Shown: positions 8,618 to 51,415 of the stretch, piece by piece
Layout: the number at the start of each line of letters is the position of its first letter
Position numbering within the stretch: the first letter of the stretch is position 1
Assembly (NCBI GenBank): GCA_964421245.1
Contig: CAYQVW010000001.1
Span: 242,712-306,711, forward strand
Origin: an uncultured bacterium
GTDB lineage: Bacteria; Margulisbacteria; WOR-1; XYC2-FULL-46-14
Length of the DNA: 64,000 nt
Direction of reading: 5' to 3'
Translations under genes and position numbers: made by a program
The notes under the pieces: generated by a model
What the model saw: the letters and a program-made list of their open reading frames with translations, nothing else
What the model was told of the DNA's origin: nothing
Database searches by the model: none

Positions 8618-9954
8618 GAATATTTTTTGATGCTATTTTAATTAATTTGTCTTTTATATTGGCCTACTATTTGCGTTTTAATATTTTCTCTTTTGTTGGG
8701 GCTGAGGCAACTAGGCCTATTAATCAATATGGTGGGGTGTTACTCTTTGTAACAATTCTATGGTTGGCGGTTTTTAATTTAGTAGGTTTTTACAAAGAAA
8801 CCCATTCATATCCTCTGATTGATAAATTGGCAAAGATAATCTGGGGAATAACTCTTGCTTCGACTTTGCTTTTTGCACTTTTGTTTATTTATCGTAGTTT
8901 TTGGTTTTCACGTTTAGTAATATTGAATTCCTGGTGGATAGCGATTGTATTGATTGGTTTTTCGAGGACAATCACAACCATGTTTAGGAACTTATTGTAT
9001 AGAAAGGGAATTGGCCTAAAACGCGTATTAATTCTTGGGGAAGATGAGATTGCAAATGCTCTAAATAGTAAGTTTTTAAACGAGAAATCTCTTGGGTATT
9101 TTCCCGTTGGATTAATAAGTGCTGATCCATCTATTATAAAACAGGCGATTATTGAGAAAAGGGTTGATGAGTTAATCATTGCATCTACAAATCTATCTCA
9201 TCAAACAATTTTAGATATTATTACTGAGTGTGAAGTCTTAAATATTAAATTTAAAATTGTCCCTGGTATGCTTGAGCTAATTGCAAGTAGGGTTGATGTT
9301 GATGAAATAGGGGGAATTCCATTAATTACAATAGCGGAAATTGGCCTTTCTGGTATAAAGGCCTTTATTAAGCGCAGTTTTGATATTTTTGTCTCTTTTG
9401 TTTTGTTAATAATACTTTTACCATTATTTATAGTGGTTGCTCTTTTTATAAAGTTTGGTTCTCCTGGTGGGGTATTGTTTAGTCAGAAAAGGGTGGGTAA
9501 GAACGGCAGAATTTTTGACTGCTTAAAATTCAGATCAATGGTTGTGGGTGCTCCAAAGCTTAAAGAGCGGTTAATGGACCAATCAGAGGCAGAAGGGCAT
9601 ATTTTTAAAATTAAGAATGATCCTCGCATAACCCGTGTTGGAAATTTTATTAGAAGATATAGTATTGATGAACTTCCGCAGCTGTTTAATGTTTTATTGG
9701 GGAATATGAGCTTGGTTGGTCCTCGGCCTCCTCTTCCTCCCGAGGTCGAAAAATACTCAGCTTGGCATAAAAAGAGGCTTAGGATTACTCCTGGAATCAC
9801 AGGGCTTTGGCAGGTTTCTGGCAGGTCCCTATTACCTTTTGAAGATATGGTCAGATTAGATATTTACTATATTGAAAATTGGTCCCTTTGGTTAGATGTA
9901 AAAATACTTTTTAGAACTATTCCGGCAGTTTTATTTAGTACCGGGGCATACTAG
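8614..9954 (+). CDS. Polyprenyl-phosphate hexose-1-phosphate transferase (WbaP/bacterial sugar transferase family), the initiating enzyme for glycan assembly
   Basis: The C-terminal domain has KRVGKNGRIFDCLKFRSM...DELPQLFNVLLGNMSLVGPRPPLPPEVEKY, the diagnostic Bac_transf motifs. The N-terminus carries several transmembrane helices. Confidence 0.92.
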   Translation: MRIFFDAILINLSFILAYYLRFNIFSFVGAEATRPINQYGGVLLFVTILWLAVFNLVGFYKETHSYPLIDKLAKIIWGITLASTLLFALLFIYRSFWFSRLVILNSWWIAIVLIGFSRTITTMFRNLLYRKGIGLKRVLILGEDEIANALNSKFLNEKSLGYFPVGLISADPSIIKQAIIEKRVDELIIASTNLSHQTILDIITECEVLNIKFKIVPGMLELIASRVDVDEIGGIPLITIAEIGLSGIKAFIKRSFDIFVSFVLLIILLPLFIVVALFIKFGSPGGVLFSQKRVGKNGRIFDCLKFRSMVVGAPKLKERLMDQSEAEGHIFKIKNDPRITRVGNFIRRYSIDELPQLFNVLLGNMSLVGPRPPLPPEVEKYSAWHKKRLRITPGITGLWQVSGRSLLPFEDMVRLDIYYIENWSLWLDVKILFRTIPAVLFSTGAY

Positions 9955-25866: not shown

Positions 25867-28350
25867 ATGCCAGAAGTTACCCCGATGGTAAAACAGTACC
25901 AAGAAATCAAATCTTGCCATAAGGACTCAATCCTTTTTTTTCGCCTTGGTGATTTCTATGAGATGTTCTACGATGATGCAATTTTAGCTTCTCGTGAGCT
26001 TGAGTTAACCCTAACAGGCAGGGGCAAGAATGAAAACCGCATGCCGATGTGCGGAATCCCTCATCATGCTTCAAAAAATTATATCCAAAAGCTAATAGAA
26101 AGAGGGTATAAAGTTGCAATCTGTGAGCAGGTAGAAGATCCATCGATTGCAAAGGGTATTGTAAAAAGGGATGTTATAAAAATCTATACCCCTGGAACAG
26201 TCATTGAATCATCAATGCTTTATGAAAAGACCAATAACTATCTTATGGCAATTGCCTTTGAAAAAAACAAATATGGCATTGCCTACGTAGATGCTTCGAC
26301 TGGGGAATTCAAAATTACTCAGGTTGATTCAGAACATAAAGTTAAAGAAGAGATAGATCGGATAAATCCGTCGGAATTGTTGATTTCGGATATGATAGAT
26401 GCTGGAAACCGCGAGGTTTACTCGCAGGTTTCCAAAAGTGTTTTCGCAGACAAATACGACTTCGAGTCCGCTTCCGAAAAGCTCAAAGAACACTTCAAAA
26501 TATCTAATTTAGAATCGTTTGGAATAGAAGATTTTAAAGTAGGAGTTGAAGCGGCTGCTGCGATCATAGATTATCTTTCTGATACACAAAAAACATCTCT
26601 CGATCATATAAATAAAATTCAACCATATAGAGTGGGGGAATTTATGTTTATCGATTCCGCTACTCGTCGCAATCTTGAATTAGTGCATACAGTAAAAGAT
26701 AAAGGCTATAAAGGAAGTTTGCTTTGGGTTCTTGATCAAACAAAGACCTCAATGGGTTCTCGCATGCTTCGTTCTTGGGTCTTACAACCACTTTTGAACG
26801 TTTCAGAAATACAAAATAGACTTGATGCTGTAGAAGAATTATATACTTCTTCAATTCTTAGGGAAGATTTGGGAAGTAATATTAGGGACATTTCAGATAT
26901 AGAAAGGTTAACGGCTAAAGTTGCTGCTGCAAGTTGTAATGCGCGGGATTTAATTGCGCTTAAAGAGTCTTTACAAAAATTACCGGCTATTGTTGAGACT
27001 TTGAGAAATTGCAGTACAAAGTTGCTAAAAATAGACATTGATATGGAATCCGTGAGACAAATTTCTGAATTTATCCAGAGATCGGTAGTTGATGATCCTC
27101 CTTTCCAAATCAAAGAGGCCGGAATAATCAAAATTGGCTATAATCCAGAACTCGATGAAATTAAAAAAGCAGCGAGTGGTGGAAAACAATGGATTGCAGA
27201 ACTTGAAACCAAAGAGCGCCAAAGAACCGGTATTAAATCGCTTAAAGTCAGCTTCAACAAAGTCTTTGGTTATTACATAGATGTAACTAAATCAAATTTG
27301 TCTCAAGTTCCGGATGATTATATTCGAAAACAAACGCTTGTAAATTCTGAGCGATATATTACTCCAGAATTAAAAGAGCAAGAATCCTTAATTTTAAATA
27401 CAGATGAAAGACTTAAAAAGATGGAGTATGAGGTTTTTTGTGAGGTCCGGGACGAAGTTGCGAAATATACCAAGTCATTACAGCTTATTGCTTTTTCATT
27501 GGCCCAGTTGGATTGTATTCTTTCGTTGGCAGAAGTTGCGGTTTCGAATAATTATTGTAAGCCTATTGTTAATGGAGAAGGGGCAAGGGTCAAGTTGCAA
27601 GGGTCAAGGCATCCAGTGGTAGAAAAGACACAGGGTGAACATCGGTTTGTGCCAAATGATGTGGAATTAAATGAAAAACAAAGCTTTTTGTTAATTACCG
27701 GACCTAATATGGGTGGAAAATCTACCTATATGCGTCAAGTTGCCTTAATTTGTTTAATGGCACAAATTGGATCATATGTTCCAGCAGATAAAGCTGAATT
27801 AATCCCAGTAGATCGTATTTTTACTCGCATTGGCGCAATGGATGATATATTTTCTGGTCAATCGACTTTTATGCTAGAGATGACCGAGACAGCAAACATA
27901 ATAAACAATGCAACTGATAAAAGTTTAATTATTCTTGATGAGATTGGTAGGGGAACCGCTACCTTTGATGGAATGTCGATTGCAGCAGCAGTTGCAGAAT
28001 ATATTCATACAAAAATCAAAGCAAAAACTATGTTTGCGACCCATTATCATGAAATAACCCAGCTAGCAGATAAGTACGATGCTATGCAGAATTTAAATGT
28101 TTCAGTAATCGAGAAAAATGATCATATTGTCTTTTTGCATAAGATTAAAGAGGGAACAGCTGATAAATCATATGGGATTCAGGTAGCAAAATTAGCCGGT
28201 TTACCAGAGTCAGTTATTTCTCGTTCAAAAGTGATTTATAACACGCTTGAGATGGTTGAAAAAGGATTTGGAGAGACACAGAAAAAGAGGTTGAAAAAGG
28301 GGAAAGGAAACGGTAGAATAGCGGATCAAGAACAGATGGGATTATTTTAG
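25867..28350 (+). CDS. mutS: DNA mismatch repair protein MutS
   Basis: GPNMGGKSTYMRQVALI (Walker A), STFMLEMTETANII, DEIGRGTATFDG, and the N-terminal mismatch-binding FYEMFYDDA. Confidence 0.97.
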   Translation: MPEVTPMVKQYQEIKSCHKDSILFFRLGDFYEMFYDDAILASRELELTLTGRGKNENRMPMCGIPHHASKNYIQKLIERGYKVAICEQVEDPSIAKGIVKRDVIKIYTPGTVIESSMLYEKTNNYLMAIAFEKNKYGIAYVDASTGEFKITQVDSEHKVKEEIDRINPSELLISDMIDAGNREVYSQVSKSVFADKYDFESASEKLKEHFKISNLESFGIEDFKVGVEAAAAIIDYLSDTQKTSLDHINKIQPYRVGEFMFIDSATRRNLELVHTVKDKGYKGSLLWVLDQTKTSMGSRMLRSWVLQPLLNVSEIQNRLDAVEELYTSSILREDLGSNIRDISDIERLTAKVAAASCNARDLIALKESLQKLPAIVETLRNCSTKLLKIDIDMESVRQISEFIQRSVVDDPPFQIKEAGIIKIGYNPELDEIKKAASGGKQWIAELETKERQRTGIKSLKVSFNKVFGYYIDVTKSNLSQVPDDYIRKQTLVNSERYITPELKEQESLILNTDERLKKMEYEVFCEVRDEVAKYTKSLQLIAFSLAQLDCILSLAEVAVSNNYCKPIVNGEGARVKLQGSRHPVVEKTQGEHRFVPNDVELNEKQSFLLITGPNMGGKSTYMRQVALICLMAQIGSYVPADKAELIPVDRIFTRIGAMDDIFSGQSTFMLEMTETANIINNATDKSLIILDEIGRGTATFDGMSIAAAVAEYIHTKIKAKTMFATHYHEITQLADKYDAMQNLNVSVIEKNDHIVFLHKIKEGTADKSYGIQVAKLAGLPESVISRSKVIYNTLEMVEKGFGETQKKRLKKGKGNGRIADQEQMGLF

Positions 28351-28363
28351 AAAGATAAACTTT

Positions 28364-29227
28364 ATGAAAAAGATATTTTCGCTATTATTCATATTGTTGG
28401 TGGTTGTTTCTGTCTCTTCTGCCCAAGAAATTCCTCAAAATTTTATTGGTGGTGGTGGATCGACTAATTCAACTTCTAGCACCAATTCTTCTTCTGGCTC
28501 TGCTGGAGGATCTGCTATTGGTAAAATGACCAATAGCGGCTACATTATGATTGCCGGTTTCCAAGCAGGTCTTATGTCCACCACTTATTCAACTGGATCC
28601 GCAGTTGCAAGCAGCGTTGTCATTGACAATGTTCTTTTTAATGGGTATGAAAAGTTAGATGACGATTATGTTGAAGCAAGTCCAAGGGTTCTTGCAACAA
28701 TAACTTCTTTAGCATCAACAATTAGTCCAGAAGTTAGCTATGTTGAAGTAAATGGAACAAAGACCTATTTTTCAGGTCTAACATCTCCTTCGGGTTTTAG
28801 TGGGACTTCGTTTATCTATGATGCGACATTCTCGGATGGGGATAATACTTTTAGCATTGTCGCATATGATCGAAGTGGCAATTCTGAAACTTATTCTCGC
28901 ACTCTAAAGGTTGATATCGGAGATATTAGCGCAACTTCGGTTTATATATTTCCAAATCCATATAATCCAAATAACGGTGTTGGTAAGATTGCCTATAGTT
29001 TGAATAAACAGGATACTGTTTCAGTCTATATCTTTAACGCAATTGGACAGCTTGTTTATAAGAGAGAATATTTGTCCGGATGGGCAGGGGCAAGGGTTGG
29101 CTATAATGAAGTTGATTTTAATGGAGTATCCGATTTTGGTCAAACTCTTGCGAACGATCTTTACTTCTTGAGAATAGTTTCTGGTGGTAAACCGATTGGG
29201 AGAGCTAAGATAGCTATACTCAAATGA
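28364..29227 (+). CDS. Secreted Gly/Ser-rich protein with a T9SS-type C-terminal sorting domain
   Basis: Signal peptide MKKIFSLLFILLVVVSVSSA. The C-terminus YIFPNPYNPNNGVGKIAYSL...VSVYIFNAIGQLVY...NDLYFLRIVSGGKPIGRAKIAILK is a Por_Secre_tail-like pattern. Confidence 0.65.
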   Translation: MKKIFSLLFILLVVVSVSSAQEIPQNFIGGGGSTNSTSSTNSSSGSAGGSAIGKMTNSGYIMIAGFQAGLMSTTYSTGSAVASSVVIDNVLFNGYEKLDDDYVEASPRVLATITSLASTISPEVSYVEVNGTKTYFSGLTSPSGFSGTSFIYDATFSDGDNTFSIVAYDRSGNSETYSRTLKVDIGDISATSVYIFPNPYNPNNGVGKIAYSLNKQDTVSVYIFNAIGQLVYKREYLSGWAGARVGYNEVDFNGVSDFGQTLANDLYFLRIVSGGKPIGRAKIAILK

Positions 29228-30774
29228 CAAATGACAAATTAAAAATTAAAAATATTATTTTTTGCGGTTTCTTTGTTGTAAGTTGTTTGTTGTTAGTTGT
29301 TAGTCAAAGCGAAGCGAGTCTTGATCCAATGAAATTAGGTGTCGGCGCTCGATCGCTGGCAATGGGCAGAGTATCAGCCGCAATCGATGGTGATATTAAC
29401 GCAATGTTTGTAAATCCAGCCAATGCAGGAGCTCTTTCTGATTGGGGACTAACCTCAATGTATACCTCTCTTATGGAGGGAGATATTGCCTATACGTTAC
29501 TTGGATATGGGAAGAGAGTTGGAATGGCCACTCTGGGCTTGTCTTACATGGGTACAGGAGTTTCTGGATTAGAAACTACTCAACGAGATGCTAATAACCG
29601 TATTGTTACGACCGGAACTACCTTTAATTATTCTAACTACGTTGCACAGCTTGTAATTGGGTTACCTGCAAATTCTGCTGGAATTGCAACTGGTGCAACA
29701 ATTAAAATGTTTAATAAATCACTATCTGATCAAGCTGGAGGGACTGGTTCTGGTTATGATCTGGATTTAGGTGTTTTGTGGAAACCAAAAAATAATCTAA
29801 CTCTTGGATTGTCTCAACAAAACACTTTGCCAGCATCAATGGGAGGGAAAATCGTTTGGGGTACTGGAGCAGAAGAAGGAATTTTATTTAATACGAAATT
29901 TGGTTTGGCTTTTAAACCTAGAAATTTTCTATTGGTTGCTTTAGATGGTGATTTTGCGCAGAATAAACCACTTGTTTTTCATGGCGGATTAGAATGGACA
30001 GTGAGAGATTTTTTAGCTTTTCGTGGTGGACTTGAACAAGTTCCAACCTCAAAAACTACTTCAACCAACAATTATTCTTTAGGATTAGGGTTAAAAATAA
30101 GAAATATTAATTTTGATTATGCTTATTATCTTGACAATGTTTTAGCAGCTAATTCTACTCATTACTTTACATTATCAATTGTTCCAAGAAAAGAAATTAA
30201 GAAAAAAGTTGTAAAACCTCCTTATAAACAAATGTTTTCTGATGTTGCAAAGGATTACTGGGCAAGGGTAGCAATTGAGCATTTGGCTACAAAAGGAATT
30301 ATTAATGGCTATACGGATAAAACATTTAGACCGACTAGAGCATTAACCCGAGCCGAGCTTTGTACCTTGCTTATTAAAGCTAAGAAAGTTCCACTCGCAA
30401 ATATTGAAGGGGAGAATGTCTTTACAGATGTTAAGAGTTCGCATTGGGCAGCGCGCTATATTAAAAATGCTGCTAATTATAAATTAATCTCTGGATATCC
30501 AGATGGTACATTTAAACCGAATAAACCTTTGAGTAGAGAAGAAGCAATGAAAATCCTAGTTTTATTTGATAAAAAGCCTTTGATAGACAAAGTTGTCTTT
30601 CCATATGGAGATATTCCTTCTGGTCGATGGTCAACTCCATATATTTCAACTGCCTATTCAGCTGGCTGGCTAACTTTTATAAAAGAAAAGGCCTTTTATC
30701 CGAAAAAGAGCTTTACTAGAGCAGAAGCAGCATTTATATTGTACTTGACTTCTTTTGTTCAGAGTTTAAAATAG
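29224..30774 (+). CDS. Outer-membrane FadL/PorV-like beta-barrel (N-terminal about 300 aa) fused to three C-terminal S-layer-homology (SLH) domains
   Basis: Signal peptide MTNDKLKIKNIIFCGFFVVSCLLLVVSQSEA. N-terminal hatch-like motif GVGARSLAMGRVSAAIDGDINAMFVNPANAGAL (cf. FadL [26 protein letters not shown]). Three SLH repeats: FSDVAKDYWARVAIEHLATKGIINGYTDKTFRPTRALTRAEL; FTDVKSSHWAARYIKNAANYKLISGYPDGTFKPNKPLSREEA; and a degenerate third ending FTRAEAAFILYL. Confidence 0.7.
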   Translation: MTNDKLKIKNIIFCGFFVVSCLLLVVSQSEASLDPMKLGVGARSLAMGRVSAAIDGDINAMFVNPANAGALSDWGLTSMYTSLMEGDIAYTLLGYGKRVGMATLGLSYMGTGVSGLETTQRDANNRIVTTGTTFNYSNYVAQLVIGLPANSAGIATGATIKMFNKSLSDQAGGTGSGYDLDLGVLWKPKNNLTLGLSQQNTLPASMGGKIVWGTGAEEGILFNTKFGLAFKPRNFLLVALDGDFAQNKPLVFHGGLEWTVRDFLAFRGGLEQVPTSKTTSTNNYSLGLGLKIRNINFDYAYYLDNVLAANSTHYFTLSIVPRKEIKKKVVKPPYKQMFSDVAKDYWARVAIEHLATKGIINGYTDKTFRPTRALTRAELCTLLIKAKKVPLANIEGENVFTDVKSSHWAARYIKNAANYKLISGYPDGTFKPNKPLSREEAMKILVLFDKKPLIDKVVFPYGDIPSGRWSTPYISTAYSAGWLTFIKEKAFYPKKSFTRAEAAFILYLTSFVQSLK

Positions 30775-35482: not shown

Positions 35483-37929
35483 AGTATTTCGAAGAAAAAA
35501 AACATAAGCGACTTCCTTCTTCGTCTTTAATTCCGTCTGATCCAACTGTTCTTTTAACAATTGCTGGGATGCTGCAGTTTAAACCAATTTTTTTGGGATT
35601 AGAAGAGCCAGCTTTTTCCAAAGCCACAACCTGTCAAAAATGTGTCCGCGTTAATGATATAGAAGAGGTTGGAAAGACTTCCAGGCACCACACTTTTTTT
35701 GAAATGCTTGGAAACTTCTCTTTTGGTGATTATTTTAAGGAGGATGCTATCAGATTTGCTTGGGAGCTATTAACAGTAAAATTAAAAATTAAAAGTGAAA
35801 AATTAAAAATTGCGGTATTTAAAGATGATAATGAGGCCCATGATATTTGGACAAAAAAGATAGGAATTAGTGAAGATAGAATTTATCGTCTAGATGCAGA
35901 GAATAATTTCTGGGCAGCTGGGCCAACCGGTCCATGTGGTCCATGTTCTGAAATATATTATGATTTTGGAGAAGACAAATCCTGTGGCCCAGATTGTAAG
36001 CTGGGGTGTGATTGTGAACGATATTTGGAGATTTGGAATCTTGTTTTTATCCAGTATAACCGTGATGAAGCCGGCAATTTAGACCCGCTTCCTAAAAAGA
36101 ACATTGATACTGGTATGGGGCTTGAAAGAATTGCCAGAGTATTGCAGAATGCAGCAACTAATTTTGATACTGATCTTTTTAAACCACTCCTTCTCGAAAT
36201 CAATAAGCACTCCAAGAAGAAGAATATTTCGGCGACAAGGATTGTTGCTGATCATTGTAGAGCTATGACCTATCTTATTGCTGATGGAATTACTCCATCA
36301 AATGAGGCTCGGGGTTATGTTCTCCGCCGTTTAATTCGACGAGCTGTTATGTATTGTAAGAAATTAGGAATAGAAGATCCCTTTTTATGGAATATTTGTG
36401 AATTAGTGATTGAATCAGGACAACATTTTTACCCAGAGCTTCAAGTTCAAGAGAGATTTATTAAATCAATAATTCAAACAGAAGAAAACAACTTTAAGTT
36501 AACTTTAAGTTCTGGAATGGAAATTATTGATAAAATAATAACTGATTCTAAAAATAAAAATATTTCAGGGGCACAGGTTTTTAAACTTCATGATACCTAT
36601 GGATTCCCATATGATCTGACAAAAGAGATATTGAAAGAAAAAGGCTATAGTTTTGACGAAGCACAATTTCACAAAAAAATGGAGGAGCAGAGAACCAGGG
36701 CCCGTTCTGAGGCTCCCAAAGATCAGTTTTTGAAGTTAAAAAAACAGGCACAAGATGATTATGGGACAACTAAATTTGTTGGCTATGATACTTTAGAAAT
36801 ACAAAGTAAAATTGTTGGAATTATCCCAGAAGAAAATTATATTATCTTAAATAAAACCCCATTTTATCCAGAAGGCGGAGGACAAGTCGGAGATATTGGC
36901 AAGATTAATAAGACAAAAGTACTTGATACCTTAGGAACAATCGGGGGAGTGATTTTTCATAAAGTAGAGCATAGTGATGGATTTAAGGTCGGAGACACTG
37001 TTTCGGCTCAGATTGACTTTATTAGACGCAACAAAATCTGTCCACATCATACGGCTACTCATCTTTTGCACGCTGCTTTGCGAATTGTTTTAGGGCAACA
37101 TGTTAAACAGGCTGGCTCATATGTCGGATCTGATCGTTTGCGTTTTGATTTTACTCATCACAAGGCCTTGTCAAAAGAGCAAGTTCTTGATGTCGAGAAA
37201 ATTGTTAATCAAAATATTAACAAGGGAATAAGTTTAAACATCTTTTGTACCAATTATGAAGCTGCCAAACAAAAAGGGGTTACTGCTCTTTTTGATCAAA
37301 AATATGGAAATGAAGTTAGAGTTGTTGAAGTTGGCGACATAAGTCGTGAATTGTGTGGAGGGTGTCATGCAAAAAACACCAAAGAGCTCAAAAGTTTTAA
37401 AATTATAAAAGAGGGTGGGATTCAATCCGGTGTTCGAAGGATTGAGGCTGTGGTTGGGGAGGCAGTTTTAGAATATCAGAGGAAAAAAGAATTTAATGAC
37501 TCTGAACTAAAAAAGAAAGAACTAGAGAAAGAGGAGGCAAAGGCTGCGGCGAAGGCAAAGGTGCAAGGTGCCGCAGGGTTGAGAAACGAGGCGGTTAAGA
37601 GTATCAAAGAGATAAAGGGAATTAAGGTACTTGCTTATCAGGCAGATAAAGTTGATATAAAGGGACTGAGGGCATTGGGAGATAAAATTAGAGATGTTTT
37701 TGACTCAGGAATTGTGCTACTTGCAGCTAGTTTTGAAGGAAAGGCCTTCTTTTTGGCTTTAGTTTCAGACGATTTGGTTAAAAAAGGTTATAAAGCAGGA
37801 GATTTAGTTAAAATCATGGCGAAGGTTTGTGGTGGAGGTGGTGGTGGTCGTCCAAATAAAGCAGAGGCTGGTGGGAGGGACCCATCAAAAATAGAAGAAG
37901 CCCTCAAGAAAGCGATTGAGTCAATATGA
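35449..37929 (+). CDS. alaS: Alanine--tRNA ligase
   Basis: N-terminal SKDIRETFLKYFEEKKHKRLPSSSLIP.DPTVLLTIAGMLQFKP, the editing-domain HTATHLLHAALRIVLGQH, and the C-terminal DHHA1 motif CGGGGGGRPNKAEAGG. Confidence 0.96.
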   Translation: MQSKDIRETFLKYFEEKKHKRLPSSSLIPSDPTVLLTIAGMLQFKPIFLGLEEPAFSKATTCQKCVRVNDIEEVGKTSRHHTFFEMLGNFSFGDYFKEDAIRFAWELLTVKLKIKSEKLKIAVFKDDNEAHDIWTKKIGISEDRIYRLDAENNFWAAGPTGPCGPCSEIYYDFGEDKSCGPDCKLGCDCERYLEIWNLVFIQYNRDEAGNLDPLPKKNIDTGMGLERIARVLQNAATNFDTDLFKPLLLEINKHSKKKNISATRIVADHCRAMTYLIADGITPSNEARGYVLRRLIRRAVMYCKKLGIEDPFLWNICELVIESGQHFYPELQVQERFIKSIIQTEENNFKLTLSSGMEIIDKIITDSKNKNISGAQVFKLHDTYGFPYDLTKEILKEKGYSFDEAQFHKKMEEQRTRARSEAPKDQFLKLKKQAQDDYGTTKFVGYDTLEIQSKIVGIIPEENYIILNKTPFYPEGGGQVGDIGKINKTKVLDTLGTIGGVIFHKVEHSDGFKVGDTVSAQIDFIRRNKICPHHTATHLLHAALRIVLGQHVKQAGSYVGSDRLRFDFTHHKALSKEQVLDVEKIVNQNINKGISLNIFCTNYEAAKQKGVTALFDQKYGNEVRVVEVGDISRELCGGCHAKNTKELKSFKIIKEGGIQSGVRRIEAVVGEAVLEYQRKKEFNDSELKKKELEKEEAKAAAKAKVQGAAGLRNEAVKSIKEIKGIKVLAYQADKVDIKGLRALGDKIRDVFDSGIVLLAASFEGKAFFLALVSDDLVKKGYKAGDLVKIMAKVCGGGGGGRPNKAEAGGRDPSKIEEALKKAIESI

Positions 37930-44090: not shown

Positions 44091-44519
44091 ATGATACTAA
44101 TAATACATGGTCCAAATCTCGATCAACTTGGAAAAAGAGAAATAGATGTCTACGGAAAAACTACTCTAGATGATATTAACAAAGCACTAAAGCACAAGGC
44201 ACAAGAGCTTAAGTTAGAAGTAAAGACAATGCAACTCTCTGGTGAGGGAGAGATTTGTAAAGAACTTGGGTCGGCAAAGGCTAATGGTTTTTCTGCGATT
44301 TTAATAAATCCAGCAGCTTATACTCATTATTCGGTTGCTGTTCGTGATGCAGTTGCTGGAGCCAATCTGCCAACAGTTGAAGTTCACTTATCAAATATTT
44401 ATGCTAGAGAAGAGTTTCGTCATAAATCAGTTATTGCACCAGTTGCAACCGGGCAGATTTCTGGCTTTGGATTAAACAGCTATCTTTTAGGTTTAGAGGC
44501 CATCGCTAAACTTATTTAA
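44091..44519 (+). CDS. aroQ: Type II 3-dehydroquinate dehydratase
   Basis: [21 protein letters not shown]...[19 protein letters not shown]...VEVHLSNI is the type II DHQase pattern. Confidence 0.92.
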
Positions 44520-45184
44520 TGAACAAAAAACATCTAACGTCTATTCGCATTGCCGAGAGAGTTTTTTCCGAATTAAAAGAATTTGTAAAACCAGGGGTTT
44601 CTGAAAAAGAGGTAGCTGCCGAAATTCGTAAGCGTGTAAAAAAATATGGAGCAAAGAAAGAATCGTTTCGTGTAATTGTTGCCTCAGGAAAAAATTCTGC
44701 TAAAATCCATGGTTTTTCCTCTAGGAAAAAAATAAGATCAAAAGATGTAATAATGTTCGATTTTGGCGCATTGTATAGAGGTTGGCGATCAGATATTACC
44801 CGTAGTTATGTTTTAGGGCAACCGACTAAAAGACAAAAAAATATTTATACTCTGCTTAAAAAGGCACAGGCTGCTGGAATAAAAAGAGTAAAGGCTGGAA
44901 TAAAGTGTTCTGAAATTGATAATAGAGTAAGGAATGTTATTGAGAAGGCTGGATATGGAGAATACTTTGTTCATACGACTGGCCATGGTGTTGGGAGAAA
45001 GACGCATGAAACTCCCCGTATTTCTGGAAATAATGATAATATACTGAAAGCTGGACAGATTATAACGATTGAGCCTGGAATTTATTTTAAAAAGAAATGG
45101 GGGATGAGAGTAGAGGATATGGTGCTTGTGACAAGTAGGGGACATAAGGTTTTAACAAAACTACCAAGGAGTTTGCTCTTGTGA
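44519..45184 (+). CDS. M24-family metallopeptidase, catalytic 'pita-bread' domain only (methionine aminopeptidase / Xaa-Pro peptidase-like)
   Basis: HTTGHGVGRKTHETP...ITIEPGIY...RVEDMV, with upstream D/D ligand positions (MFDFG, RSDITR). 221 aa. Confidence 0.72.
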   Translation: MNKKHLTSIRIAERVFSELKEFVKPGVSEKEVAAEIRKRVKKYGAKKESFRVIVASGKNSAKIHGFSSRKKIRSKDVIMFDFGALYRGWRSDITRSYVLGQPTKRQKNIYTLLKKAQAAGIKRVKAGIKCSEIDNRVRNVIEKAGYGEYFVHTTGHGVGRKTHETPRISGNNDNILKAGQIITIEPGIYFKKKWGMRVEDMVLVTSRGHKVLTKLPRSLLL

Positions 45185-45891
45185 AAATTTTCACAATCAT
45201 CGCGGCAGGTGGAACTGGAAACCGCATGGGACAGCCAAAACAGCTGCTACCAATATGTGGAAAACCAATGCTTGAGTGGACAGTTAACGTCTTTAAAGAG
45301 GTTTCAGAAATTTCTGGAATAGTAATTGTTGGTCCGGGAGAAGGATTGTCACCCTTGGTTTGTAAATCTGGTCAAGAAAGAACTGATTCAATTCGAAATG
45401 GTTTAGAATTAGTTCCAAAAGATTGTGACATTGTTTTAATTCATGATGGTGCGCGACCACTTATTACACCCGAAATAATTAGAAATTCTATAGAAGAATG
45501 TATGAAACATGATGCAGTAGTGGTAGGGGTACCGGTCAAGGATACAATTAAGCAAATCCGAAATCCTAAACCTGCCTCGCCTGCTGCTCGGCAAGGCGGG
45601 TCCGAAATCCTAAATAAATCCAAATTACCAATTGTCCAAATTCAAAACACATTAAACAGAAAAGAGTTGTGGCAGGCGCAGACACCGCAGGTCTTTAAAT
45701 ATTCCGTACTAAAAGAAGCCTACAAAAACGCCAAAGGCAATGCAACTGATGACTCAAAATTAGTTGAGGATCTTGGTATTCCTGTTAAAATGGTTGTGGG
45801 GTCATACGAAAACATAAAAGTAACGACCCCGGAAGATTTAATTATTGCGGAGACTATATTATGTTCACGCCAACAAAAGAAGAATTCGTAA
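45181..45891 (+). CDS. ispD: 2-C-methyl-D-erythritol 4-phosphate cytidylyltransferase
   Basis: IIAAGGTGNRMGQPKQLLPICGKPML...VLIHDGARPLI...VPVKDTIK...LWQAQTPQVF. GTG start. The gene contains a GC-rich hairpin element flanked by direct repeats (45557-45614). Confidence 0.86.
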   Translation: MKIFTIIAAGGTGNRMGQPKQLLPICGKPMLEWTVNVFKEVSEISGIVIVGPGEGLSPLVCKSGQERTDSIRNGLELVPKDCDIVLIHDGARPLITPEIIRNSIEECMKHDAVVVGVPVKDTIKQIRNPKPASPAARQGGSEILNKSKLPIVQIQNTLNRKELWQAQTPQVFKYSVLKEAYKNAKGNATDDSKLVEDLGIPVKMVVGSYENIKVTTPEDLIIAETILCSRQQKKNS

Positions 45892-47267
45892 AACTATCAA
45901 AAAAGGGTAATCTTATCCCAGTCTATAAAATTATAGAGATGGGGAAGGAGACACCAGTTAGCGCGTTTCGGAAAATAGAGTCAGATTATTCATTCCTCTT
46001 GGAATCAATTGAAGGTGGGGAAAATATTGCTCGTTATTCTTTTGTGGGATCAAATCCAAAATTCGTATTTAGGTCTGGCTTAGAAAATCCTTTTGATGAG
46101 TTAAAAAAATTTCTGGAACAATACCAAGCTGTAAAGATCCCAAATCTTCCTCGTTTTCATGGTGGGATGGTTGGGTATATTGGCTACGATAGTATTCGCT
46201 ATATTGAACCTAGAGTTCCGTGCAATAATTCTGATGATTTGAAAGTTCCTGACATGGTTTTTATGATGGCTGATTCTCTATTGGCCTTTGATCATGTAGA
46301 AAAGAAGATAATCATAATTTCAAATGCACATATAACATCCGATCCAGAAAAAGCTTATGCTGGTGCGGTTGAACAGATAAAAAAGATAGAAAAAACCTTA
46401 AAAAAGAAAATCCGACTTTCAAAGTTAAAAGATGTTAAAAAAGATATTGAATTTTCTTCTAATTTTTCAAAAAAAGAATATATGCAGATTGTAGAAAAAG
46501 CAAAAGAATATATAACCTCTGGGGATATTATTCAAGTTGTTCCGTCTCAAAGATTTGAGGTACCATTTACCCAAAATGGATTAGACACCTATCGGGTTTT
46601 AAGAGAAATAAATCCATCACCGTACATGTATTACTTAAAAATGGAGAATATGAGTTTAGTTGGTTCCTCCCCTGAGGTTATGGTCCGTTTAGAAGAAAGG
46701 GAGTGTACAATTCGTCCAATTGCAGGGACCAGATGGAGAGGAAAAACAAAAGAAGAAGACAAGGCTTTGGAAAAAGAACTTTTGGCATCTGAAAAAGAGA
46801 TTGCAGAACATGTTATGTTGGTTGATTTAGCTCGCAACGATTTAGGTAGAGTTTGTGAGTATGGATCGGTTGAAGTTAATGAAAAAATGACAGTGGAAAA
46901 ATACTCTCATGTTATGCATATTGTTTCAAATGTCCGAGGTAAAATTAGTTCAGATAAAGACTGTTTTGATTTAATAAAGGCCTCATTTCCCGCGGGAACC
47001 GTTTCCGGTGCTCCAAAGATTCGGGCGATGGAGATAATTGATGAACTTGAGAATACAAAACGTGGTCCGTATGCTGGATCGGTTTGCTACTTCGGATTTA
47101 ACGGAGAACTGGATTCCGCAATCACTATTCGCACCATTCTATTAAAAGACAAAAAAGCTTATGTTCAAGCGGGTGGGGGAATCGTTGCTGATTCTGATCC
47201 TGAGGCTGAATATCAAGAGACCTGTAATAAGGCTAAAGCCTTACTTTCTGCTATTCAAATAGCCTGA
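45861..47267 (+). CDS. Chorismate-binding enzyme, anthranilate synthase component I / aminodeoxychorismate synthase family (TrpE/PabB)
   Basis: GGMVGYIGYDSIRYIE, IIQVVPSQRF, and GTVSGAPKIRAMEIIDELE...RGPYAGSVCYFGFNG...AITIRT. Confidence 0.88.
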   Translation: MFTPTKEEFVKLSKKGNLIPVYKIIEMGKETPVSAFRKIESDYSFLLESIEGGENIARYSFVGSNPKFVFRSGLENPFDELKKFLEQYQAVKIPNLPRFHGGMVGYIGYDSIRYIEPRVPCNNSDDLKVPDMVFMMADSLLAFDHVEKKIIIISNAHITSDPEKAYAGAVEQIKKIEKTLKKKIRLSKLKDVKKDIEFSSNFSKKEYMQIVEKAKEYITSGDIIQVVPSQRFEVPFTQNGLDTYRVLREINPSPYMYYLKMENMSLVGSSPEVMVRLEERECTIRPIAGTRWRGKTKEEDKALEKELLASEKEIAEHVMLVDLARNDLGRVCEYGSVEVNEKMTVEKYSHVMHIVSNVRGKISSDKDCFDLIKASFPAGTVSGAPKIRAMEIIDELENTKRGPYAGSVCYFGFNGELDSAITIRTILLKDKKAYVQAGGGIVADSDPEAEYQETCNKAKALLSAIQIA

Positions 47268-47301
47268 AATTTTTTGAAATACCTACCGAAAGAAACATGT
47301 A

Positions 47302-48666
47302 ATGGTCGTTAAACCAATATATACAACTACCAACGGAACCGTTGAGTCTATTAAAAGGATAAGTAAAGATCAATTTGCTGAGACAATCTTTAAAACCTTA
47401 GGAAGACGTGGTTATATTCCAAGAAGCGCAAAATTTAAGAAATACAAAAATGTAATTAAAGAAGCAATAAGGGATAAGGATAAAGACAAACGTCCAGAGG
47501 CAGTAGTAGCAGAAGTAGCGAAAAAACTTGTAGCCAAAAAACTGCAAACAAAAAAATTACAGCTTACTCCTAAAACACTGAAAAAAATAGATTGGGTTCT
47601 CTGTAGTATTAATGGAGTGGAGCGCTACTTCCCAGCAGAGGTTGACCCTAAAGCGGTAAACCCACGATTTGTTGGTTATATTAAGATTACTAGTGGTTTA
47701 AAGCCGATCAAGTCAACTAAATTTAAAAAGCCTATTAAGGAAGGGGTGGCAAAGTTTAAAAAACACTTTAAGTCTGGTTGGTGGAGAGACGAAAGACAAA
47801 TTTCTCTTTATATGGGTTCGGCCAACGCATTTTTAAATTATTACTTTGTTCATGGTGGACATGTTGGCTTTACTAGAAACTTAACAGATGGACTTATCCC
47901 CCAATTAGCTAAAGATAAATATAATCGTTCCATTACAAACTGTAAGGGGTTTCGTGATCTTCATACAAAATTATTCCGTTCATTAGGACTTACCAAGCTT
48001 TATTTTGGAATGGCACTGATGGGAAACTCTTCTGCTAATCTATTGCCACGGCCGCACACCTTTGTAATGGCCAGAATTCCAGGCACTAGATCTGTTTTGG
48101 TTGGGGATAACCGTTTTGTTCGCCGCTATAATGCTCTCAATACATTCTATTCCCAAAAGAGTCAAGATAATTATCTCTATATTACATATGGTAAGAGCGT
48201 TAGAACAACTAATCGCGTATATTCGAAAGGTTTATATCGAGGATACCTTGAATTTGCTCGTAGAAAACTGAAACAACATTCAAATGCAATCGCCGACAAA
48301 ATAGCAGGTAGGGATTCTCTCTCTGCTGATTGCAAAAAAGATTTAAAGTTTGCTTTGAGGGCTGTAGATAAAGCTATAAAGAATATCACAAGGCAAAGTT
48401 TTGAAGTTAAGTTTGGCCGATTGTCAAAAGCGAAAAAGGTTAGAGTAAAGGTTTTCTTAAAACATTATAGGAGAATGATTGCTATGGCACTGCGTGGCAG
48501 TGTTACAAAAGCAAAAGAAGATAAGGATGCGCTTGCTTTTTTTAGAAATCAAATTAAAGAAGAAGCGGCTAGGAAAGGGATTAATCCAAGTAATGATAAT
48601 GTCTTTTTCCTTGTTTTTAGAAGTCTTGTGGGTGGATCAGTTTCTGAAAATGTTCCCAACTTTTGA
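47302..48666 (+). CDS. Hypothetical highly basic protein (454 aa)
   Basis: Continuous ORF. Lys/Arg-rich throughout, with a histone-H1-like N-terminal stretch (KKLVAKKLQTKKLQLTPKTLKK). No family recognised. Confidence 0.55.
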   Translation: MVVKPIYTTTNGTVESIKRISKDQFAETIFKTLGRRGYIPRSAKFKKYKNVIKEAIRDKDKDKRPEAVVAEVAKKLVAKKLQTKKLQLTPKTLKKIDWVLCSINGVERYFPAEVDPKAVNPRFVGYIKITSGLKPIKSTKFKKPIKEGVAKFKKHFKSGWWRDERQISLYMGSANAFLNYYFVHGGHVGFTRNLTDGLIPQLAKDKYNRSITNCKGFRDLHTKLFRSLGLTKLYFGMALMGNSSANLLPRPHTFVMARIPGTRSVLVGDNRFVRRYNALNTFYSQKSQDNYLYITYGKSVRTTNRVYSKGLYRGYLEFARRKLKQHSNAIADKIAGRDSLSADCKKDLKFALRAVDKAIKNITRQSFEVKFGRLSKAKKVRVKVFLKHYRRMIAMALRGSVTKAKEDKDALAFFRNQIKEEAARKGINPSNDNVFFLVFRSLVGGSVSENVPNF

Positions 48667-48712
48667 TAATATTTCTATTGCCTGAATTTTCCCAATATAC
48701 TACAATTAACAC

Positions 48713-49942
48713 ATGATCAATCCTCGCATGATTAAGATATCTGATTCTCTTGTGTGGCTAATCCCAATTGTTTTAGTTTTAGTCGGATTATTATTGATTG
48801 CCTCAACAACTTTTAATGCAGAACAAAAAGCAGAGCGCGATCCTTTTTCCTATGTGAAACGACAGGCGGTCTCATTTTCAATCGGTTTAGTTCTAATGGT
48901 TTACTTTGCATTTGTAGATTATAAGAAGCTAAGAAGCCTAGCTCCATTACTTTACATATTGATGCTTTTTATTCTTGTTCTTGTTCTTTTTCTAGGAAGA
49001 AGTTCCTTGGGGGCACAGCGTTGGATTATGCTTGGACCCTTTTCGTTTCAACCCTCAGAAATTGCAAAATTATTGCTAATTATTTCTTTAGCAGCATATT
49101 TTAGTTCCAGGAAAGAAAAGATTGGAATGTTTAGGGCCTTAGCAATTGCGGGCATTCCCTTTTTACTGATTTTTAAACAACCAGATTTAGGAACTGGATT
49201 AGTATTAATTTCAATTTCGCTTGGAATGTTAATCTGGGGAAAGGCTTCTCCAGTATTGCTTACAATGATTTTTTCTCCTCTGGCTTCTATTTATTTTCGT
49301 CAAAACCTATATCTTTGGATTACCTATATTATTATTCTATGGGCCGTTCTATATTTTTCACGTGTCAAGATTGCTGACATGCTTTTAATTCTTGGAATAA
49401 ATATTGGTGTTGGTATCGCTCTTCCTATTCTATGGGGATTATTAAAGCCTTATCAGCAGATGAGGGTCTTGTCATTTTTAAATCCAGCAATGGATCCACA
49501 TGGGATTGGGTATCATACATTGCAATCAAAGATTGCGGTTGGGGCTGGCGGGTTTTTGGGAAAAGGTTTCATGAGTGGGACTCAAACCCAACTACAATTT
49601 GTACCAATTCAAAGCTCTGATTTTATCTTTTCGGCAATTGCCGAGGAGTTTGGTTTTATCGGATCTTTCTCTATTCTTTCTTTGTTTTTGATTTTATTAT
49701 GGAGAATCTTTAAAATTGCGGAAGGAGCTTATGATTATTTTGGATCAATGTTAGTTGCCGGAATTGGAGTAATGCTAATGTTTCATTTTTTTGTTTCAAT
49801 CGGGATGAATATTGGTGTTCTTCCAGTAGTTGGGATACCGCTACCGTTTGTCTCTTTTGGAGGAACTTCACTTATTGTAAATTTGGTTTCAATTGGTATA
49901 ATACAAAGTGTCGCAATGCGACGCCAGAAACTTATTTTTTAA
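48713..49942 (+). CDS. rodA: SEDS-family peptidoglycan glycosyltransferase (RodA/FtsW-type; likely rodA, being outside the dcw block)
   Basis: PSEIAKLLLIISLAAYF, KQPDLGTGLVLISI, and C-terminal GIPLPFVSFGGTSL. Confidence 0.85.
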   Translation: MINPRMIKISDSLVWLIPIVLVLVGLLLIASTTFNAEQKAERDPFSYVKRQAVSFSIGLVLMVYFAFVDYKKLRSLAPLLYILMLFILVLVLFLGRSSLGAQRWIMLGPFSFQPSEIAKLLLIISLAAYFSSRKEKIGMFRALAIAGIPFLLIFKQPDLGTGLVLISISLGMLIWGKASPVLLTMIFSPLASIYFRQNLYLWITYIIILWAVLYFSRVKIADMLLILGINIGVGIALPILWGLLKPYQQMRVLSFLNPAMDPHGIGYHTLQSKIAVGAGGFLGKGFMSGTQTQLQFVPIQSSDFIFSAIAEEFGFIGSFSILSLFLILLWRIFKIAEGAYDYFGSMLVAGIGVMLMFHFFVSIGMNIGVLPVVGIPLPFVSFGGTSLIVNLVSIGIIQSVAMRRQKLIF

Positions 49943-49943
49943 A

Positions 49944-50165
49944 ATGAAAAATGTAACAAAGATAAAGGGAATTATCGATAGAGTAGAGGATGGCTTTGCA
50001 GTCATTCTTTTGGGCCATGATGAAGAGGTTATGGTTGAACTGCCCGATTGCTATCTACCCCCAGAAATACAAGAAGGGGATATTGTAACCTTTAAACTTG
50101 AAAAGCACAGTAGAAAAACAAAAGAAGCTAAGAAAAAAGTTGCGAAGATGATAAAGGCGCTGTAG
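49944..50165 (+). CDS. Small DUF3006-like protein
   Basis: MKNVTKIKGIIDRVEDGFAVILLGHDEEVMVELPDCYLPPEIQEGDIVTF resembles the DUF3006 pattern. Start reassigned to ATG 49944, immediately after the rodA stop; the track ORF begins at 49908 inside rodA. Confidence 0.55.
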   Translation: MKNVTKIKGIIDRVEDGFAVILLGHDEEVMVELPDCYLPPEIQEGDIVTFKLEKHSRKTKEAKKKVAKMIKAL

Positions 50166-50191
50166 GGTCAAGTCGCGACTTGACCCTACAG
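50160..50191. terminator. 32-bp perfect palindrome (CTGTAGGGTCAAGTCG|CGACTTGACCCTACAG) between convergent genes, probably a bidirectional terminator hairpin
   Basis: Perfect 16+16 inverted repeat, GC-rich in an AT-rich context. It contains the TAG stop of the plus-strand gene (50163-50165) and the TAG of the minus-strand gene (complement of 50186-50188). No U-tract on either side. Confidence 0.6.
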
Positions 50192-51415
50192 CTTAAATTC
50201 TGCTTCTACTTGTCCGGAAGCCTCAAAAGTTTTGTCTTTTACAGAAATAATTACTTTTTGACATTTAACCCAACGCTCTTTTTCTTTTAAATAAACATTA
50301 TTAGTTAATGTTATAGTTTCATTCTTGTCAGAATAATCCGCCCTTTCTGCTTTTGCCTTTTTGTCCACCTCGGCGAGCCTGCCTCGCGGCAAGGCGGGCC
50401 CTCGGCGAGACGGGCCTTTCTGCCTTACTATTATATTCCCAAAAGCCTTATAATCACCGTTTATGGTTGAAAGAATCAAGGTGTCCGAGCTTTGCAGCGT
50501 TTTATTTTTTAGTAGTTCTTTTATTTTTTTGTCTTTTAGCTTTTGTGCTGTCTTTTCCTTAATTAAGGCACTTCCTCTTTCAATGATTGTTTCAACGGAT
50601 CCAGACAGAGTGATCTCTTTTTTTATCTTATTATATATTGCCTGATCGGCTGTGCAAACTTTTTTTCCTTGAATTACCTCAACCTCCGATGAGATACTTA
50701 CATCTTTATTTTCATCGATATACATTTGAAGATAACCAGATTTTATTCTTGTTTTTTCTTTTCCTGAAATAGTAGATCTAATATTTTTTTGTGCCAGGAT
50801 TTTTTCGGTTTTAGCTCGATACTCTAATGCCCGGCAGGTTAGGCTAACATCTTCTCTCTTGATTCTTATATTGTCTGTTAGCCAGGCAATTTCTTTGTCA
50901 TGATTTATTCTCATGTTATCGCTAAATAATGTTGTTTTTTTATCAATTAATCTTATGTTCCCAGAGAGGGAAGATTCTTTTAGATCTGGATTGTGGCTAA
51001 AAAAATCAGCATTGATGCTTGAGTATTTTCTTTTTCCTTTATTTCTTTTACTGGTAATTGATATTTGTGCTTTGGCTTTTTTGGCTTCAACCCTTTTTGA
51101 TCCACGAAAAGCAGAAACTTGTTCGGCAGTGAAATTTTTTATCAGGAGTTCTCCATCTTTATAAAATGTTCCTTCAACAACGTCTTTGAGATTGGTTATA
51201 TCTTTATTTTTTCCAACCCAGCCGGTTTTGGCGGAAAATTCCCAAACTTTTTTTCCATCGGTCCTTCCAACAATCGATGAAGCATCAAACTCAAGAATTC
51301 TATCAATTCTTTTGGTTGTCTCAACCTTGGGAAGTGTAAAGACAAAAATCAAGATAAGCATCACAAATGAGGCTAGGGCAGCAAAAAGAATGGGTTTCCA
51401 AGGAGCTTGTTCCAT
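50186..51415 (-). CDS. Membrane-anchored periplasmic protein with OstA-like beta-jellyroll repeats, a putative LptC/LptA-type lipopolysaccharide transport protein
   Basis: N-terminal transmembrane anchor PILFAALASFVMLILIFVF. Repeated LptA-like segments (TLFSDNMRINHDKEIAWLTDNIRIKRED; KVCTADQAIYNKIKKEITLSGSVETI). It contains a GC-rich hairpin element at 50368-50409. An extended -10 TGcTATAAT lies just upstream on the minus strand (complement of 51424-51432). Confidence 0.45.
   Translation of the reverse strand: MEQAPWKPILFAALASFVMLILIFVFTLPKVETTKRIDRILEFDASSIVGRTDGKKVWEFSAKTGWVGKNKDITNLKDVVEGTFYKDGELLIKNFTAEQVSAFRGSKRVEAKKAKAQISITSKRNKGKRKYSSINADFFSHNPDLKESSLSGNIRLIDKKTTLFSDNMRINHDKEIAWLTDNIRIKREDVSLTCRALEYRAKTEKILAQKNIRSTISGKEKTRIKSGYLQMYIDENKDVSISSEVEVIQGKKVCTADQAIYNKIKKEITLSGSVETIIERGSALIKEKTAQKLKDKKIKELLKNKTLQSSDTLILSTINGDYKAFGNIIVRQKGPSRRGPALPRGRLAEVDKKAKAERADYSDKNETITLTNNVYLKEKERWVKCQKVIISVKDKTFEASGQVEAEFKL

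Follow-up and report, generated by a model that had tools for sequence, protein, structure and literature searches.

Among the small repeats described in bacteria, two groups lie closest to the element reported here. The SDR elements of Nostoc are 21-27-nt repeats, thought to be mobile, that insert precisely in other repeats, SDR5 doing so between nucleotides 3 and 4 of HIP1, and they have been reported in Nostocaceae only (PMC5861425, PMC4390886, PMC2884548). The REP/REPIN and RAYT systems comprise imperfect GC-rich palindromes of 20-40 bp, mostly extragenic and without target duplication (PMC3733652, PMC3116915); in-ORF (open reading frame) copies that add residues, sharing between species and nesting in small palindromes have also been described for REPs (PMC3733652). 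In this work, we analyzed a 64-kb stretch of DNA (hereafter the window) from a metagenome-assembled genome (MAG) of the Saganbacteria / Margulisiibacteriota (WOR-1), in which a short GC-rich core interrupts ispD (site 1) and a LptC/LptA/OstA-like gene (site 2). Both sites are probably copies of one non-autonomous, very small dispersed repeat, that is, a mobile module with an exact unit whose movement may be of the single-stranded DNA type. In the module, a centre that varies is enclosed by the constant arms CCTGCCTCGC and GGCAAGGCGGG, which are imperfectly complementary to each other. It inserts with exact boundaries, in either orientation and with no target duplication, and it often enters the loops of other small hairpins or tandem heptamer arrays, and occasionally coding sequence.

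The best place for the module is among the very small palindromic repeats that are dispersed in genomes, in a REP-like or SDR-like class, the SDRs being compared by description. On that footing, the core resembles SDRs in its units of 21/22 nt placed exactly in hairpin loops and heptamer arrays and in having no linked gene; it differs in being identical across many phyla, whereas the SDRs have been reported in Nostocaceae only, and in that in-frame coding copies and a multiple-of-3 length filter are shown for the core. SDR4-6 of Nostoc and relatives, the subject of a 2008 article by Elhai et al. (Genome Res 18:1484), reportedly can form hairpins and are associated with heptamer repeats, and the WOR-1 lineage is regarded as sister to Cyanobacteria. 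The sequence-only reading of the window had proposed a MITE-like (miniature inverted-repeat transposable element) or REP-like nature, and the latter label is the nearer one: the core is an imperfect GC-rich palindrome of 21-30 nt with at least 119 exact copies elsewhere and two in the window. However, the defining GTAG or CGTC tag is absent, no RAYT (Y1 HUH transposase) was seen near the copies in 119 loci of 8 kb, the core sequence is identical over many phyla, and the copies are singlets instead of the inverted doublets of REPINs (arm-like words occurred within 150 nt in 35% of copies vs 28% of controls, with no consistent partner).

The two sites and their host genes are organized as follows:

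45181-45891, + strand: host gene ispD, 236 aa, Pfam IspD E=5e-51.

45554-45570, + strand: left part of the heptamer array, AAATCCG AAATCCT AAA, abutting the unit and holding the first copy of the 14-bp repeat.

45571-45600, + strand: site 1 unit, CCTGCCTCGC + CTGCTGCTC + GGCAAGGCGGG, coding for part of ...PASPAARQGG...

45601-45621, + strand: right part of the heptamer array, TCCG AAATCCT AAATAAATCC, holding the second copy of the 14-bp repeat.

50186-51415, - strand: host gene for the LptC/LptA/OstA-like beta-jellyroll protein, 409 aa; its 17-aa insert is residues 334-350, between two strands.

50363-50377, + strand: left arm of an older outer hairpin, GTCCACCTCGGCGAG, holding the first 10-bp repeat (50368-50377).

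50378-50398, + strand: site 2 unit, the minimal 21-nt core CCTGCCTCGCGGCAAGGCGGG; on the gene strand (-) it reads CCCGCCTTGCCGCGAGGCAGG and codes for PALPRGR.

50399-50413, + strand: right arm of the older outer hairpin, CCCTCGGCGAGACGG, holding the second 10-bp repeat (50400-50409).

At site 1, the 30-nt CCTGCCTCGCCTGCTGCTCGGCAAGGCGGG (45571-45600) lies within ispD between two copies of TCCGAAATCCTAAA (45557-45570 and 45601-45614); at site 2, two copies of CCTCGGCGAG (50368-50377 and 50400-50409) enclose the 21-nt CCTGCCTCGCGGCAAGGCGGG (50378-50398) and one further C. The repeats, cores and coordinates first read at both sites are therefore confirmed as described. The gapped core CCTGCCTCGC(0-9 nt)GGCAAGGCGGG has exactly 2 matches in the window and was found in 0 of 100 shuffles. 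Sites 1 and 2 are also the two longest GC islands of the window, whose GC is 36.7% and not 33%, and they are its only GC-rich hairpins exceeding the control level. The stems are imperfect, with 10 pairs at site 1, 9 at site 2 and 2 mismatches in each, and their folding energies are not clearly better than those of shuffles (z of about -1.7 to -1.9 in three of four folds; the 21-nt core by itself gives -0.6). A strict hairpin search of the window (at least 8 Watson-Crick pairs, at most 1 mismatch) gave no match and missed both cores as well, which means that the stems are markedly imperfect.

Both cores are members of a single dispersed family of tiny insertions tolerated in coding sequence, as had been suspected, with a shared core and copies in unrelated genes, and the suggested mobility is supported as well. 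Scanning one genome per species for the exact pattern returned the core in at least 119 stretches of other bacterial genomes from many phyla, the chance expectation being well under one per fixed gap; the core is thus much more widespread than had been supposed. Among the matches listed, hosts include Saccharibacteria, many other Patescibacteria, Omnitrophota, Lentimicrobiaceae, Ignavibacteria, Planctomycetia, Nitrospira, Gammaproteobacteria, Flavobacteriaceae and another WOR-1 genome; some MAGs carry several copies, each locus having a single match. Again among the matches listed, the centre is empty in 31 copies and a single C in 30 (61 with 0-1 nt) and spans 3-30 nt in the remainder. The unit accordingly occurs in a minimal form of 21 nt and in forms of 22, 27-30 and 43-45 nt, and a 27-nt sister of the site 1 unit (loop CTGCTC) is present in another WOR-1 genome (L050). 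The arms are kept at orthologous positions in related species of Nitrospira, Saccharibacteria and Cyclobacteriaceae, and in three Saccharibacteria orthologous copies differ in the centre while the arms are constant. Carriage by phages was considered and rejected, with 1 match in 2.9 million viral contigs. A literature search for the exact sequences retrieved eukaryotic primers only and no mention in a bacterial context.

Other hairpin families accompany the core. Related hairpin words of YYGCC type form a cloud in the same genomes. The 43-45-nt versions stand at L025, L043, L046, L058, L082, L088, L090, L096, L100, L101, L104, L105 and L127, the titled loci belonging mostly to one Lentimicrobiaceae MAG, and their 22-24-nt interior is variable and loosely conserved (e.g. 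..GCCAACTGCA..). A second family of dispersed repeats related to the core is the perfect 20-bp palindrome CCTGCCTGCCGGCAGGCAGG, found at L008 8698-8717 (an in-frame +21-nt insert in a trpE-like gene), at L009 6249-6268 (the ispD loop) and at nine further loci among L010-L128. A family of 25-27-nt hairpins, GTCATTCCCGCGAAGGCGGGAATCC and its variants, recurs at scattered sites in several Patescibacteria and in other MAGs (L016 5537, L028 4095, L056, L060, L081, L102 and others) and is a frequent landing site of the core.

The boundaries of the unit were defined by more than 10 comparisons of filled and empty sites, all of which show an exact insertion of 21 nt (or 22, 27 or 43-45 nt) with zero target duplication, the targets being usually loops of other hairpins or heptamer arrays. 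The hairpin formed by GTCATTCCCGCGAAGG and CGGGAATCC is empty and 25 nt long in L016 and L028; in L053 it measures 46 nt, with the 21-nt core exactly at the junction of the two halves, and in L106 the same hairpin is filled by the core in inverted orientation. In L056, the pair GTCATTCCCGA and CCTGATCGGGAATC occurs both empty and filled within one 8-kb locus with 0 mismatches, the junction having a 4-nt microhomology, CCTG. Further pairs from a general search comprise same-locus paralogues in L018 and L069, coreless (GTTAATC)n and (CAAGATA)n arrays and the 43-45-nt forms, again with no duplication. Copies in a heptamer-array context are found at L083, L040, L105, L058 and L073, and arrays without a core exist too. 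Across 115 non-redundant copies, the flanks show a purine at -1 in 79% and a pyrimidine at +1 in 83%.

Both window sites can be dissected in the same way by comparison with the syntenic relatives L005, L007, L008, L009, L131, L132 and L133, and the orthologue alignments bear out the proposal that the inserts are lineage-specific. In 16 of 18 Lpt-like orthologues the sequence runs uninterrupted from QKG to (K/R)EAK, whereas the window protein has 17 additional aa and that of L008 has 10, both inserted at one codon boundary. Read along the gene strand, the states are as follows:

Empty state (L007): GGC, directly followed by AAG.

L008 state: GGC, then CCGTCTCGCCAAGGG.CTCGCCGAGGCGGAA, then AAA.

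Window state: GGC, then CCGTCTCGCCGAGGG, the core CCCGCCTTGCCGCGAGGCAGG and CTCGCCGAGGTGGAC, then AAA.

A 30-nt insert of the L008 type, with the 21-nt core and nothing else added in its middle, gives the window insert. In L008 the outer hairpin stands by itself (+30 nt), with both repeats present and no core, and L005, L007 and L009 have neither insert. Since the site 2 repeat is nearly self-complementary (8 of 9 positions match its own reverse complement) and the outer insert folds alone (-8.5 kcal/mol with the core removed, compared with -7.2 kcal/mol for the L008 insert), the site 2 repeats are the arms of an older hairpin with the core at its apex. The 30-nt hairpin was thus inserted first and the 21-nt core later into its apex, giving 30+21 = 51 nt, or 17 codons. 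Among the close relatives, L008 stands farthest away (72.6% identity, against 80.1% for L007 and 76.9% for L005), so the shared outer hairpin implies either clean loss or parallel gain.

At site 1, the sequence parses as AAATCCG AAATCCT AAA, core, TCCG AAATCCT AAATAAATCC, and hence the 14-bp repeat is simply two AAATCCN units of an array; a TRF tandem-repeat row at 45605-45625 overlaps the right part of it. The tip of a beta-hairpin arm (approximately residues 127-153) holds the insert, in a loop that has 35 aa in the window and 12 aa in the shortest close relative. We compared the stretch between KDTIK and R..LW in eight loci including the window:

L133: 36 nt, without a hairpin, 31% GC.

L007: 42 nt, without a strong hairpin.

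L008: 54 nt, GTAGGGACAGGTC-ACC-GACCTGTCCTAC.

L132: 57 nt, GACAGCAC-ACT-GTGCTGTC.

L131: 60 nt, GGGCGGGTT-TGA-AACCCGCCC.

L009: 78 nt, the perfect palindrome CCTGCCTGCCGGCAGGCAGG with ATGACCA units on its flanks.

Window: 105 nt, the core inside the AAATCCN array.

L005: 126 nt, a complex hairpin with CAAATGA units on its flanks.

By this comparison, the ispD loop is a hotspot among the relatives. A viable candidate ancestor, read in the present downstream frame, would be …AAG CAA ATC CTA AAT AAA TCC… (KQILNKS…), relative to which the window would have gained 30 nt of core and 3 x 7 nt of heptamers, 51 nt in all, each part being frame-neutral alone; the 30-nt core would then sit in a heptamer array probably three units longer than the ancestral one.

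Heptamers are also a feature of the window at large. Period-7 tandem repeats are its commonest class, with 10 arrays vs about 2.4 per Markov shuffle (e.g. 3425-3460, 14479-14505, 27578-27609, 29221-29304, 30798-32, 35778-35811 and 44179-44204), so that heptamer slippage seems to be a habit of this genome; many of these arrays lie inside long ORFs though 7 is not divisible by 3, and they are reminiscent of cyanobacterial heptamer repeats. In addition, an identical 32-nt sequence, AAATGACAAATGACAAATTAAAAATTAAAAAT, occurs at 3427-3458 and 29222-29253 (+), where two unrelated ORFs apparently have their 5' ends; both would start MTNDKLKIKN, and the same 18-mer flanks the ispD-loop hairpin of L005.

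Inside genes, the core occurs in every reading frame and on both strands, with no coding-strand bias (26/43). Copies are less frequent in ORFs of at least 200 aa than random positions are (34% vs 73%), and there the unit length is divisible by 3 in 25 of 29 cases, compared with 13 of 46 in ORFs shorter than 100 aa (p=1e-6); the ratio of 21-nt to 22-nt units is 15:3 inside genes and 10:19 outside (p=0.002). Purifying selection filters the in-gene copies, leaving frame-preserving ones in tolerant surface loops only. Two leucyl-tRNA synthetase (LeuRS) genes carry the core at different positions, one of a Patescibacterium (L021, around aa 492) and one of WOR-1 (L050, around aa 341), each insert being missing in the other. 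An outer hairpin, GGAAACCTGCGAC..GTCGCGGTTTCC, surrounds the L050 copy, and L018 has this hairpin in both empty and filled form. In the predicted structures of the window proteins, both inserts are the lowest-confidence internal segments, apparently disordered beta-hairpin tips, of otherwise confident models. The IspD model has a mean pLDDT (predicted local distance difference test) of 82.6 and its only segment below 50 is insert residues 138-149, between strands 123-126 and 154-158; the Lpt-like model, also with a mean of 82.6, places insert 334-350 (below 50 at 336-349) between strands 322-333 and 351-362. The solved IspD structure 5mrn aligns end to end with the window IspD except for a 22-residue gap opposite the insert. 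Programmed translational bypass between the 14-bp repeats was rejected, as it would land out of frame on TAA, and read-through fits the orthologues.

How the unit moves can be sketched only tentatively. A trans-acting enzyme, working in the 'peel and paste' manner of IS200/IS605 and REP-RAYT, would excise the module in single-stranded hairpin form at the base of its stem and join it into DNA that is briefly single-stranded, such as hairpin tips or slipped tandem repeats; recognition by that enzyme would account for the conservation of the arms across phyla. Taken as a whole, we regard this scheme as possible and still somewhat doubtful. The likeness to IS200/IS605 insertion sequences (IS) resides in the lack of the usual terminal inverted repeats (TIRs), the lack of target duplication, the imperfect hairpins and, on the side of those elements, entry into single-stranded DNA. 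In contrast, they are at least 600 bp long and carry tnpA, or are derived MITEs with two different hairpin ends, and they show a tetra- or pentanucleotide target and a replication-strand bias, whereas the core shows a purine-pyrimidine step only and no strand bias (by 8-kb skew, with low power). Yeast mitochondrial GC clusters or 'byp' elements are likewise short GC-rich palindromic mobile inserts of an AT-rich genome, some of them in coding genes (var1); the M class duplicates a TAG target and byps are skipped by the ribosome. The core differs from these mitochondrial elements in that its inserts are read through in frame and that bypass at site 1 would meet a stop. Rickettsia palindromic elements (Ogata et al. 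2000) are said to measure approximately 100-150 bp and to be restricted to Rickettsia. By description, the core resembles them as selfish palindromic DNA, in frame in conserved protein genes of a low-GC genome and at surface-exposed positions; it differs in its 21-45-nt unit (inserts of 21-51 nt) and its cross-phylum spread. Those elements are also mentioned in the REP literature (PMC3733652).

Several observations weigh against a mobile module moved by a dedicated enzyme. (i) All-against-all ORF clustering over the 119 8-kb loci yielded housekeeping clusters only, recurring at 7 loci at most, with no recurrent neighbouring protein and no transposase or nuclease candidate. (ii) To our knowledge, 21 nt is shorter than the ends needed by any characterized HUH transposase. 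(iii) The 115 non-redundant copies have no GTAG/CGTC tag or further conserved flank, the tags occurring at background frequency, and no orientation bias was seen relative to GC skew (66/121 on the G-rich strand, p=0.36), the 8-kb skew being a weak proxy with low power. (iv) All 119 listed matches are MAGs, with no isolate among them. (v) A check for presence/absence polymorphism, which the first reading had suggested, found none within the window's own population, and a metagenome scan for an empty or intermediate site 2 allele there returned only an unrelated low-complexity match (L130). (vi) Only two copies are present in the window, and activity in this genome may be ancient.

Templated repair or gene conversion with no dedicated enzyme is the alternative that survives best, although we consider it unlikely. 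Hairpin tips or slipped repeats would be cut (e.g. by an SbcCD-type nuclease) or would stall replication, and another family member would be copied in by way of GC-rich microhomology. Such a process would fit the tendency to enter tandem arrays and the apexes of other hairpins, the varying centres and constant arms of the orthologous Saccharibacteria copies, the CCTG microhomology at the L056 junction, the YYGCC-type words sharing the same genomes, and the lack of a linked gene and of strand bias. It would, however, be expected to leave ragged ends and carry over donor flanks, and the boundaries are base-exact in unrelated contexts; the same imperfect palindrome in many phyla is also hard to obtain without a recognizing factor or frequent transfer.

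It is improbable that the core is a fixed functional motif under positive selection, be it a protein-binding site, a terminator, an mRNA-stabilizing hairpin or a small structured RNA. The location of most copies outside long ORFs, the retention of the arms at orthologous positions and the semi-conserved interior of the 43-45-nt Lentimicrobiaceae form speak for a function, and some intergenic copies may have acquired a secondary, exapted role. But the core is present in housekeeping genes that have no relation to one another, in all frames and on both strands, with no bias for the transcribed strand, it folds no better than shuffles, and filled and empty paralogues coexist in one locus. Nor did the window and 18 loci match any Rfam 15 family at gathering thresholds, a permissive scan of 45300-50700 giving noise only. 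Two other candidate readings were discarded: a hammerhead- or twister-like interpretation of the CTGAGA / CTGATGA flanks has no Rfam support, and a dif/Xer-like interpretation of the 28-nt form (11+6+11) was set aside, as the element is dispersed and its commonest form is spacerless.

The flanking direct repeats had been taken as insertion products of a MITE-like element; they would then be the filled-in targets of a DDE-type transposase making staggered cuts 10-14 bp apart. This we now hold to be very improbable, and the target-duplication reading is already largely refuted. In its favor, abutting direct repeats of at least 8 bp are about 9-fold more frequent than in a shuffled-pair control (7.5% vs 0.8%), being found at both window sites, L083 and L124. 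Nevertheless, 79% of copies lack any flanking repeat of at least 6 bp and the filled/empty pairs are duplication-free, which led us to reject a target-site duplication of fixed length. Where flanking repeats do occur, they are units of heptamer arrays (site 1, L083, L105, L058), which are also known without a core, or hairpin arms, as at site 2, where L008 has both repeats and no core. The repeats therefore belong to the target context and not to the insertion. Moreover, the core plus one repeat amounts to 44 nt at site 1 and 32 nt at site 2, neither of them divisible by 3, so an element with a simple duplicated target could not enter in frame, whereas unit length alone accounts for frame preservation. 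MITEs also measure about 50-500 bp, compared with 21-45 nt here, and the core lacks a characteristic target duplication; the arms could formally be TIRs of 10-11 bp, but no related IS was seen, no search of an IS-end database having been made.

A sequencing or assembly artefact (adapter or hairpin-linker remnants, chimeric joins) can practically be dismissed: despite the exclusively MAG origin of the 119 listed matches, they come from many projects and include two records deposited as whole chromosomes (OY969425.1 and OZ245881.1), the insert-bearing IspD is identical on contigs from one ENA assembly and three separate Logan run assemblies, the Lpt-like protein is recorded from seven contigs of four sources and a contig with both genes was recovered in independent assemblies, orthologous copies show ordinary substitutions in their flanks and outer hairpin, and no artefact predicts the enrichment of frame-preserving lengths in genes. 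An origin from sequencing adapters, raised by weak partial resemblances of 8 nt to old 454 adapter words, is contradicted by the same independent assemblies and frame statistics.

Returning to the mobile module, its least explained feature is the identity of the imperfect arms across phyla, which implies a conserved recognizing factor or frequent transfer, neither of which is described for elements so small in the literature searched. It is tempting to speculate that the 21-nt core, as a 'nano-transposon', is smaller than any other discrete mobile DNA module so far seen in bacteria; its hairpin would be read by horizontally shared or universally conserved machinery, and it would have spread, without target duplication, into single-stranded loops of genomes from Patescibacteria to Proteobacteria. 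We put this forward as a conjecture that we would not call likely. If correct, the core would be to many phyla what the SDR elements are to Nostoc, and it would reach essential genes too. More generally, if the mobile module is accepted, a 21-nt sequence would act as a self-contained insertion unit across many phyla, mostly uncultured and small-genomed, and very small mobile repeats would extend from one cyanobacterial family to a broad phenomenon. With dozens of exact filled/empty sites and complete MAGs holding several copies, the mechanism would be inferable and directly testable, and the multiple-of-3 length filter cleanly parts mutational input from selection. The module also gives rise to loop insertions that mark single lineages within conserved proteins (IspD, LptC/A-like, LeuRS, TrpE-like), and these insertions can mislead alignments, gene calling and protein-length quality checks in MAGs.

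Other differences between the window and its relatives were recorded. A 454-aa ORF at 47302-48666 (+), with no Pfam match (best E=0.12), lies between a trpE-like gene and rodA and is missing from the syntenic L005, L007, L008, L009 and L132, which makes it a lineage-specific gene insertion. Conversely, L131 (600-1057) and L132 (8820-9277) carry a small gene pair including a protein of the ParE-toxin family between aroQ and an M24 peptidase gene, absent in the window, and L005 (5445-7466) and L008 (3896-5896) carry an ORF of 666-673 aa without Pfam domains between a trypsin-like protease and a GT2 gene, absent in the window and L007. Finally, the window contains two further GC-rich islands inside long ORFs, at 9718-9748, GGTCCTCGGCCTCCTCTTCCTCCCGAGGTCG (..GPRPPLPPEV..), and at 36681-36718, GGAGGAGCAGAGAACCAGGGCCCGTTCTGAGGCTCCCA.

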